A stretch of 24,334 bases of DNA. Origin: a virus. Lineage: Duplodnaviria; Heunggongvirae; Uroviricota; Caudoviricetes. This document shows positions 9,001 through 12,000 of this stretch, in pieces (within the stretch, counting starts at the first letter, position 1; each line of letters opens with the position of its first letter). The position numbers were made by a program. The stretch lies in the IMG/VR virus record IMGVR_UViG_2526164604_000012; one strand, 5' to 3'.

Positions 9001-12000
9001 CTGTTAAAAAACAAAAACGGAAGAAAACAGTAACTGACGATGTTAACCCCTGGCTGACTTCCGGAGGATGGTTATGAACCAGAATGATATCGAAGCCATG
9101 ATTCAGCGTTATACGGAAGCTGAAATGGCGGTGCTGGACGGAAAATCCGTCACCTTTAATGGTCAGCAGATGACCATGGAAAACTTATCTGAGATCCGGC
9201 AGGGACGGCAGGAGTGGGAGCGCCGCCTTGCGGCTCTGATTACACGACGACGGGGGCATCCCGGGTACCGGCTGGCGAGGTTCTGATGGCAATTCTTGAT
9301 GATGTGATTGGCGTTTTTTCACCAGGATGGAAAGCGGCAAGGCTGCGTTCCCGTGCGGTGATCCAGGCTTATGAGGCCGTAAAAACGACGCGGACACACA
9401 AAGCCCGGCGGGAAAACCGAACTGCCGACCAGTTAAGCCAGTACGGGGCCGTGTCGTTACGTGAGCAGGCCCGTTACCTTGATAACAACCACGATCTGGT
9501 TATTGGTGTATTTGACAAGCTGGAAGAACGGGTGGTGGGGAAAAACGGGATTATTGTCGAGCCACATCCGGTATTACGCAATGGGGCCATTGCCCGTGAT
9601 CTGGCCGCGGAGATACGCACCCGATGGAGTGAATGGTCTGTCAGTCCGGAAGTCACCGGGCAGTTTACCCGTCCGATGCTGGAACGTCTGATGCTGCGTA
9701 CCTGGCTGCGCGATGGTGAGGTGTTTGCCCAGATGGTTTCCGGGCGCATAAACAGCCTGACGCCTTCTGCCGGTGTTCATTTCTGGCTGGAGGCGCTCGA
9801 GCCAGACTTTATTCCCATGACCAGTGATGAGAGCAACAGGCTGAATCAGGGCGTGTTTGTTGATGACTGGGGGCGTCCCGAAAAATATCTGGTGTATAAA
9901 AGCCGTCCCGTATCCGGACGGCAGATGGAAACCAAAGAAGTGGATGCAGAGCGAATGCTGCATCTTAAATTTGTTCGCCGTCTGCACCAGATGCGCGGGA
10001 CGTCTTTGTTGTCCGGTGTGCTGATCCGCCTCAGTGCCCTGAAAGAGTATGAGGATTCTGAGCTGACTGCAGCAAGGATCGCCGCTGCTCTGGGGATGTA
10101 CATCCGGAAAGGCGATGGGCAGAGCTATGAACCGGATGGTAATGGCAGCAAGGATAAGGAACGCGAGCTTACCATTCAGCCAGGCATTATTTACGACGAT
10201 CTGAAACCCGGCGAAGAAATCGGAATGGTGAAGTCGGATCGCCCCAATCCTAACCTTGAAACTTTTCGTAATGGTCAGTTGCGTGCCGTGGCGGCGGGCA
10301 GTCGTCTGAATTTTTTCCAGTACAGCGCGCAACTATAACGGCACTTACAGCGCCCAGCGTCAGGAGCTGGTTGAATCCACTGATGGCTACCTGATCCTGC
10401 AGGACTGGTTTATTGGTGCCGTCACCCGCCCGATGTATCGTGCCTGGCTGAAACAGGCTGTGGCATCCGGTGTTATCAGGCTACCCCGCGATCTTGACCG
10501 TTCTTCACTGTATACCGCGGTGTATTCCGGACCGGTGATGCCGTGGATTGACCCTGTTAAGGAGGCTGAGGCCTGGAAAATTCAGATTCGTGGTGGAGCA
10601 GCGACAGAATCAGACTGGGTACGTGCAGGTGGTCGTAATCCGGATGATGTCAAACGTCGGCGCAAGGCCGAAATTGATGAAAACCGCAAGCTGGATCTGG
10701 TATTTGATACCGATCCGGCCAGTGATAAAGGAGGCAGCAGTGCCGCAACGAAACGACAGGAGCCGCAGCACACCGACGACCAGTCCGAAGAATAATTCCT
10801 GGTTCAGGATGCAGGCTGGTCACCAGAGTGACGCGGATATTTATATTTATGACGAGATTGGTTTCTGGGGTGTTACAGCGAAGCAGTTTATCAGTGATCT
10901 GAATGCACTGGGCGATATCACCCACATTAATCTCAATATCAATTCACCGGGTGGCGATGTCTTTGAAGGCATCGCCATTTTTAATGCACTGAAAACACAT
11001 GGTGCGTCCATTACCGTTTATGTCGACGGTGTGGCGGCGTCAATGGCGTCGGTCATTGCGATGGTGGGAAAACCGGTCATTATGCCGGAAAACTCCTTCA
11101 TGATGATTCATAAACCATTTGGCTTTACGGGCGGTGATGCGGAGGACATGCGCACCTATGCCGACCTGCTCGATAAAGTTGAGGCGGTTCTGTTACCCGC
11201 TTATGCACAGAAAACCGGGAAAACCACCGATGAAATTGCTGCCATGCTGGCGGATGAGACCTGGATGTCCGGTGCCGAATGTCTGGCACATGGATTTGCT
11301 GATCAGGTGACGCCAGCCGTTAAGGCAATGGCATGTATTCAGTCAAAACGTACAGAGGAATTTAAAAAGATGCCGGAATCCATTCGAAACATGATTACTC
11401 CGCCACGCAACAGTGCTCCACGCGTACAGGATGATGGACCTGCAGCCTCCCGGACGCCAGTGCAGGCAGCAGCACCTGTGGTGGATGAAAACAGTATCCG
11501 TGCGCAGGTACTGGCAGAGCAAAAAGCGCGTGTAAACGGTATTAATGATCTGTTTGCCATGTTTGGCGGGCGTTATCAGACGCTGCAGGCTCAGTGTCTT
11601 GCCGATCCTGAATGTTCGCTGGAGCAGGCCCGCGAAAAGCTGTTGAACGAGATGGGGCGCGAGTCCACGCCATCTAATAAAAATACCCCGGCTCATATTT
11701 ATGCCGGAAACGGTAATTTTGTGGGGGATGGGATCCGCCAGGCGCTGATGGCGCGTGCCGGATTTGAAAAAACCGAACGTGATAATGTCTACAACGGGAT
11801 GACCCTGCGTGAATATGCCCGTATGTCACTGACTGAACGGGGTATTGGGGTTTCCAGTTATAACCCGATGCAGATGGTCGGTGCGGCGTTCACACACAGT
11901 ACGTCTGACTTCGGTAATATTCTGCTGGATGTTGCGAACAAAGCCATTCTGCAGGGCTGGGAAGATGCCCCTGAAACCTATGAACAGTGGACGCGGAAAG

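Follow-up and report, generated by a model that had tools for sequence, protein, structure and literature searches.

The stretch of DNA analysed here, called the window throughout, is the whole 24,334-nucleotide (nt) IMG/VR virus record IMGVR_UViG_2526164604_000012 (Caudoviricetes), and our subject is its portal gene, the reading frame of which is broken. An earlier note, made from the sequence alone, had described a portal frame running from ATG 9286 to a stop ending at 10338, a frame shifted by one nucleotide and open from 10310 to 10795, an overlap of 29 nt between the two and, within this overlap, a T6 homopolymer and a (GC)3 repeat. We found all of these where the note had placed them. 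The features at the break are the following, with the source of each in brackets (ORF, open reading frame).

10310..10311, + strand: the lesion, "AT" in place of a single "G", a net gain of 1 nt which turns T5 into T6 (pairwise and multiple alignments)
9286..10338, + strand: N-terminal portal fragment (ORF list, Pfam PF05136, RefSeq ECs_0826 / WP_010904538.1)
10310..10795, + strand: C-terminal part of the portal, encoded in the +1 frame by 161 codons, FSSTARNYNGTYSAQRQ... (translation, annotation, alignment with mEp460)
10311..10316, + strand: T6 homopolymer, T5 in all the intact alleles examined (sequence, alignments)
10325..10330, + strand: (GC)3 repeat GCGCGC, irrelevant to the frame break (alignments with intact alleles)

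The N-terminal fragment is made of 341 native codons followed by 9 out-of-frame codons (NFFQYSAQL) and by the stop TAA at 10336-10338. In the +1 frame, a TGA at 10307-10309 is followed by an open stretch which begins at 10310, extends to the TAA ending at 10795 and reads FSSTARNYNGTYSAQRQELVEST...; the fragment it encodes is the collinear counterpart of the portal protein of phage mEp460 from residue 343 to residue 502. When one T was removed in silico, a single portal ORF of 1509 nt (502 amino acids and the stop) was restored, as the earlier note had foreseen. The other repair proposed there, the addition of one GC unit, does close the frame (1512 nt), but the local peptide is then non-native and the homologues show the GC repeat unchanged. 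There are 41 A/T runs of at least 6 nt in the window, so that T6 runs are not unusual in it, and a second T6 of the portal gene, at 9314-9319, is in frame and common to intact homologues.

The window and prophage Sp3 of Escherichia coli O157:H7 Sakai (NC_002695, 891124-929709, adjoining ybhC) are collinear, with 99.98% identity over 17.5 kb; Sp3 is the prophage called CP-933K in strain EDL933. The Sakai genes ECs_0826 and ECs_0827 are the same locus with the same allele, and there is no difference between them and the window at the portal. We aligned the break with the portal genes of mEp460, of four E. coli alleles (EDL933, 1EC213, AMSHJX01 and BH100N) and of the O55:H7 strain CB9615. The EDL933 allele is identical to the window, the 65-nt junction included; 1EC213, AMSHJX01, BH100N and CB9615 are intact, with GAG-TTTTT. 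The alignment with mEp460 contains one gap, in the intact context ...GTC GTC TGA G-T TTT TCC AGT.... The intact codons CTG AGT TTT TCC face CTG AAT TTT TTC C in the window, the difference starting at codon 342: what is GAG-TTTTT in intact homologues has become GAATTTTTT, the G on the 5' side of the run being now also an A. Alignment with intact portals, which the earlier note had proposed, thus pinpointed the indel as G -> AT at 10310..10311. The note was right to place the lesion in the T run, where the extra T is found, but it had missed the adjacent G-to-A, which would make the restored protein S342N. The window was searched in both orientations for a copy of GAATTTTTT(CC) that could have served as a local donor of the mutation, and none was found.

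The (GC)3 repeat is identical in the intact alleles of mEp460, 1EC213 and CB9615, and is disrupted (ACGGCACGC) in the intact and more distant alleles of AMSHJX01 and BH100N. Because it is unchanged in close intact alleles and not conserved in distant intact ones, the repeat, judging from these alignments, plays no part in the frame break. Among sequenced phages, 16 (mEp460, cdtI, Ayreon, Tritos and others) match the portal gene over 1509 nt at 98.2-99.1% identity and have one annotated portal protein. The portal genes of mEp460, cdtI and Ayreon (PF05136), which share the gene order, start and stop of the window at 98-99% nucleotide identity, are continuous over 1509 nt (502 amino acids) with AGT TTT TCC at codons 342-344, whereas the window terminates at codon 351. 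Two genuinely separate genes, the arrangement which the earlier note had said would refute its reading, were looked for in homologues, and these have one ORF. Classified by hand, the substitutions which separate the portal gene from that of mEp460 are 11 synonymous and 2 non-synonymous ones overall; a single substitution, a synonymous one, lies downstream of the break.

We then considered the distribution of the lesion. A 1510-nt segment covering the portal gene has matches in 1,897 of the 5,426 complete E. coli genomes; its matches at 100% are found in O157:H7-type strains only, where RefSeq lists "phage portal protein (x2)". This type of portal occurs at a median of one place per genome and is single in most genomes. 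A 65-nt query centred on the lesion is matched exactly in 287 complete genomes, Sakai and EDL933 included. The ranking of these matches was read through an evenly spaced sample of 60 rows, within which there are 10 exact matches, all of the O157:H7 type (EDL933, other O157:H7 strains, and unserotyped strains from cattle and humans); all the non-exact full-length matches of this sample span 64 nt. The lesion site is matched in about 1,540 other E. coli genomes, the sampled ones being one base shorter, and the non-O157 alleles sampled, 64 nt long at the site, are annotated as one portal coding sequence (CDS). A synthetic in-frame allele, A followed by T5, was matched exactly in 0 of the 1,828 matching genomes (5,426 E. 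coli genomes searched). A phase-variable homopolymer switch would be expected to leave both states among genomes; we counted 0 "ON" alleles (A+T5) against 287 exact T6 alleles, variants with T7 not being counted separately.

In the strain CB9615, which belongs to O55:H7, the sister lineage of O157:H7, the orthologous prophage is likewise integrated at ybhC, with 99.88% identity to the window over 17.5 kb. Its portal gene is intact (1509 nt), and two single nucleotide polymorphisms plus the lesion separate it from that of the window. Because the orthologous portal of CB9615 is intact, the comparison of the two prophages dates the frameshift to the O157:H7 branch, after its split from O55:H7.

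The consequence for the protein was examined against Pfam and against the portal of lambda. The N-terminal fragment matches PF05136 (Phage_portal_2) with 249 bits (cut-off 32.9) and the intact mEp460 orthologue with 277 bits; the match of the fragment ends at position 324 of the 354 of the profile, that of the orthologue covers 3-354, and the C-terminal fragment alone matched no Pfam family. From residue 305 on, the intact portal aligns without gap to lambda gpB from residue 332 (PDB 8K38), residue 342 being S369 of gpB. By cryo-electron microscopy, gpB is divided into a wing (24-249 and 368-452), a stem (250-279 and 343-367), a clip (280-342) and a crown (453-511), and its Gln379 touches DNA (PMC10721106). 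On this alignment the 350-residue product ends 1-2 residues past the second stem helix, at the boundary of stem and wing. It retains stem and clip as well as the N-terminal wing, and lacks the crown and the second wing segment, which carries the DNA-contacting tunnel loop. The break is situated within the most conserved stretch of the portal family, and no continuous polypeptide having PF05136, the C-terminal wing and the crown is encoded, the remainder being in the +1 frame. We infer that the truncated portal is non-functional.

Hence, we consider it very probable (about 0.93) that the portal gene is a pseudogene produced by a real one-base frameshift which was fixed in the O157:H7 lineage. 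The earlier note's proposal of a genuine inactivating slippage mutation at the T run agrees with this, the intact homologues having T5 and a continuous portal of 502 amino acids. The G of codon 342 was replaced by AT, or equivalently a G-to-A was accompanied by the slippage-type gain of one T in T5, probably by replication slippage; the +1 shift leads to a stop 9 codons later and to the product of 350 residues, deprived of the second wing segment and of the crown, which a working dodecameric portal needs. Clonal descent fixed this lesion in a prophage which was already losing other functions. That the portal is a pseudogene is already known: it is annotated as such in Sakai, ECs_0827 having the name "phage portal protein" and the label of a pseudogene in RefSeq, and it is published as defective, Asadulghani et al. 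(2009) having scored the Sp3 portal "D" (PMC2669165). The same authors predicted that Sp3 is unable to excise, and in their experiments they saw it neither circularise nor replicate, nor become packaged (PMC2669165). A portal so broken would leave Sp3/CP-933K unable to build its own capsids, in line with these published experiments.

The other lesions of the prophage point in the same direction. In O157:H7, Sp3 has an integrase pseudogene and a truncated bet, and it lacks the whole block of immunity and replication genes found in CB9615; in the window, an insertion sequence lies in the tape-measure gene as well. The CB9615 prophage (NC_013941, 980789-1017000), which shares the ybhC site, differs by its intact portal and by retaining the integrase, the excisionase, an immunity region with a LexA-family repressor and cro/cII-like regulators, replication genes and ninB. 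What marks a pseudogene of a decaying prophage is therefore found together here: uninterrupted close orthologues, a lesion confined to one lineage, further lesions, and an inactive element. CB9615 also has lesions of its own: bet and ral are frameshifted, and the fusion of ClpP-like protease and major capsid protein is interrupted by an internal stop. The comparison of the two sequences shows that the same prophage is decaying independently in two sister lineages.

A few observations weigh against a complete loss of the portal. Chemically, tRNA-Phe could re-pair in the +1 frame on U_UUU_UUC, and non-programmed frameshifting suppresses frameshifts in E. coli at about 1e-4 to 1e-3 per codon, a rate measured for -1 events (PMC10861913). 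A trace of full-length portal would thus be compatible with the sequence, the window of 9 codons allowing a trace at most. Moreover, both fragments are free of further stops and the sole downstream substitution relative to mEp460 is, once the frame is restored, a synonymous one. The sequence past the frameshift thus shows no sign of decay; with less than 1% of differences this has no statistical weight, and it fits a recent event. We regard as very unlikely that the gene has kept or gained a role, either through a trickle of full-length S342N portal, made by a low-level unprogrammed slippage of tRNA-Phe or by an RNA polymerase which rarely drops one U, or through an abundant truncated product (wing, stem and clip) which poisons by co-assembly the portals of related phages, incoming or resident. 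If this were true, it would be a case resembling a "savior indel".

An error of sequencing or assembly at the homopolymer, the true sequence being T5 with an intact portal, had been offered in the earlier note as one explanation. Homopolymers are classic error sites on some platforms. We reject this explanation, which we hold to have practically no chance of being right, because the identical complex change recurs in hundreds of independent assemblies: the 287 complete genomes with the same 65-nt allele come from many laboratories and platforms, the change includes a G-to-A which is no homopolymer miscall, and the corrected O157-type allele (A+T5) occurs in none of the 1,828 genomes. Equally negligible, in our view, is a genuinely split portal, in which two separately translated polypeptides would assemble into a working structure. 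It would suit such a structure that in most O157 genomes the Prokaryotic Genome Annotation Pipeline (PGAP) gives two CDSs named "phage portal protein", neither of them flagged as a pseudogene, but no homologue is split and the break falls in the stretch which the family conserves most. The candidate restarts ATG 10433 and GTG 10460 have no Shine-Dalgarno-like motif upstream, and they would omit some 40-50 residues which align to the start of the second wing segment of gpB, including the position of Gln379. An adventitious leakiness, by which unprogrammed +1 slippage or RNA errors in the 9-codon overlap would yield a functional trickle of portal, for instance for resident lambdoid prophages, has the following in its favour: only 12 copies of the portal are needed per capsid, error frameshifting reaches 1e-4 to more than 1e-3 per codon in E. 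coli, though for -1 events (PMC10861913), and the prophages of O157 complement one another and recombine (PMC2669165). We still find it highly improbable. The productive window is just 29 nt long, with an expected yield not above some 0.1-1%; for Sp3 itself there is neither circularisation nor replication, nor packaging (PMC2669165); and, the portal type being single in most genomes, there is no obvious client phage.

There is the further possibility of a programmed recoding, either a ribosomal +1 shift at U_UUU_UUC or the loss of one U by RNA polymerase at T6, that would produce a functional full-length portal at a fixed ratio. The earlier note had ranked it as least likely, and we agree that it is hardly credible, in view of the lack of conservation and of stimulators. 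The only plausible ribosomal route is the re-pairing of tRNA-Phe from UUU (10312-10314) to UUU (10313-10315), followed by UCC, which gives ...RLNFSSTARNYN..., the native sequence with S342N. A weak hairpin (GGCGGC-gggca-GTCGTC) also precedes the run, in a terminator-like pattern match at 10290-10316. However, only one clonal lineage has the break, the ORF being continuous in the O55:H7 orthologue, in the 16 phages and in the roughly 1,540 other genomes; the A-site codon is the common UUC, neither a stop nor rare; and no Shine-Dalgarno-like element is found upstream in CGUCUGAA. The hairpin, 4 nt from the run, has -7 kcal/mol against -12.5 for the slippage stimulator of Roseiflexus, is not favoured in its 35-nt context (z = 0.11) and is unchanged in intact alleles. 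The RNA fold of 10270-10400 gives z = -0.71, and a scan with Rfam gathering thresholds finds no family near the portal site, only a pseudoknot in an insertion sequence (IS) of the window. As to the polymerase, selection against A/T runs is evident from about 9 nt in a large share of bacterial genomes (PMC1088944), and slippage in E. coli is efficient at runs of 9 A/T; at T5C5 it is undetectable without context, a strong adjacent hairpin being needed (PMC5009743). The T6 of the portal is neither such a long run nor a shorter motif beside a strong hairpin. Transcription deletions are rarely tied to homopolymers (PMC5574713), and it is the loss of one U which would be required to rescue the portal.

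The comparison with known frameshift sites leads to the same result. Like prfB, the portal would need a +1 shift and allows re-pairing in the P site (UUU_U in the window, CUU_U in prfB), but its A-site codon is neither a stop nor a hungry one, and it has neither a stimulating upstream Shine-Dalgarno sequence nor conservation among homologues. Among the features expected of a programmed +1 frameshift of the prfB or antizyme type, we found no conserved break, no slow A-site codon and no stimulator. The window has two -1 sites of its own, in orfA/orfB of the IS and in the tail chaperone genes G/GT, which resemble the portal break in that two ORFs in different frames overlap over a short distance. 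The IS site has a slippery sequence of the A_AAA_AAG type and an Rfam pseudoknot, and the portal break has neither; the G/T arrangement is common to all relatives, and the portal break is not. Since the window holds these programmed frameshift sites, a genuine one in the IS and a presumed one in G/T, the broken portal provides a clean negative control for scans which look for recoding sites.

The signal of the IS is a genuine programmed -1 one and lies at 17816-17932 of the window, with A6 at 17853-17858, in the overlap of orfA and orfB, with a score of 121.5 bits for the ALIL pseudoknot of Rfam (RF01497). The genes of the tail assembly chaperones, G (15248-15634) and T (15643-15972), follow the plan of lambda G/GT: T is read in the -1 frame with respect to G, at the end of which stands CCG GAA AAG TCC TGA. 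The region 15620-15643 presumably holds the -1 frameshift which tail chaperones conserve.

The neighbours of the portal gene are the expected late genes of a lambdoid phage, tail genes included. It is placed between the terminase large subunit and a W-like gene on one side and the head protease on the other, which is the gene order of the lambda family.

6975..9077, + strand: terminase large subunit, intact (ORF list, annotation)
9068..9286, + strand: W-like gene, 72 amino acids, at the position of the head-tail adaptor W of lambda (ORF list, phage comparison, annotation)
10740..12767, + strand: fusion of ClpP-like prohead protease and major capsid protein (ORF list, annotation)

The TGA stop of the W-like gene and the ATG of the portal at 9286 overlap by 1 nt, the shared A. 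The start chosen by PGAP for the N-terminal portal fragment is GTG 9214 (374 amino acids, WP_010904538.1), which overlaps the W-like gene; the portal of intact homologues starts at the ATG equivalent to 9286. With its annotated start, the fusion of protease and capsid protein shares the final 56 nt of the portal gene (10740-10795), read in a different frame; in the annotation of mEp460 it starts after the portal stop instead. In most O157 genomes PGAP gives both portal fragments as ordinary CDSs, with no pseudogene flag, and our analysis exposes this inconsistency in the annotation.

Compared with Sakai Sp3, the window additionally contains the IS. This element belongs to the IS3 family, is 1310 bp long (17481-18790) and lies inside the tape-measure gene of Sp3; it carries orfA (17535-17861, HTH_Tnp_1) and orfB (17858-18748, rve), and RefSeq names it IS1203 family, which is the IS629 type. 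Sakai, strain 472 and CB9615 lack it, and contiguous IS junctions at 100% were found only in the O157:H7 strain F6667 (NZ_CP038366.1), so that the window probably derives from F6667 or from a near relative of it.

Finally we must note that the prophage carries cargo. The gene lpxR, encoding a lipid A 3'-O-deacylase, occupies 577-1536 of the window on the - strand, between a truncated antiterminator remnant and Q, and the far end of Sp3 in Sakai contains the type III secretion system effector genes nleB2-1, nleC, nleH1-1 and nleD. It is plausible that these cargo genes are the reason why a dead prophage is retained.

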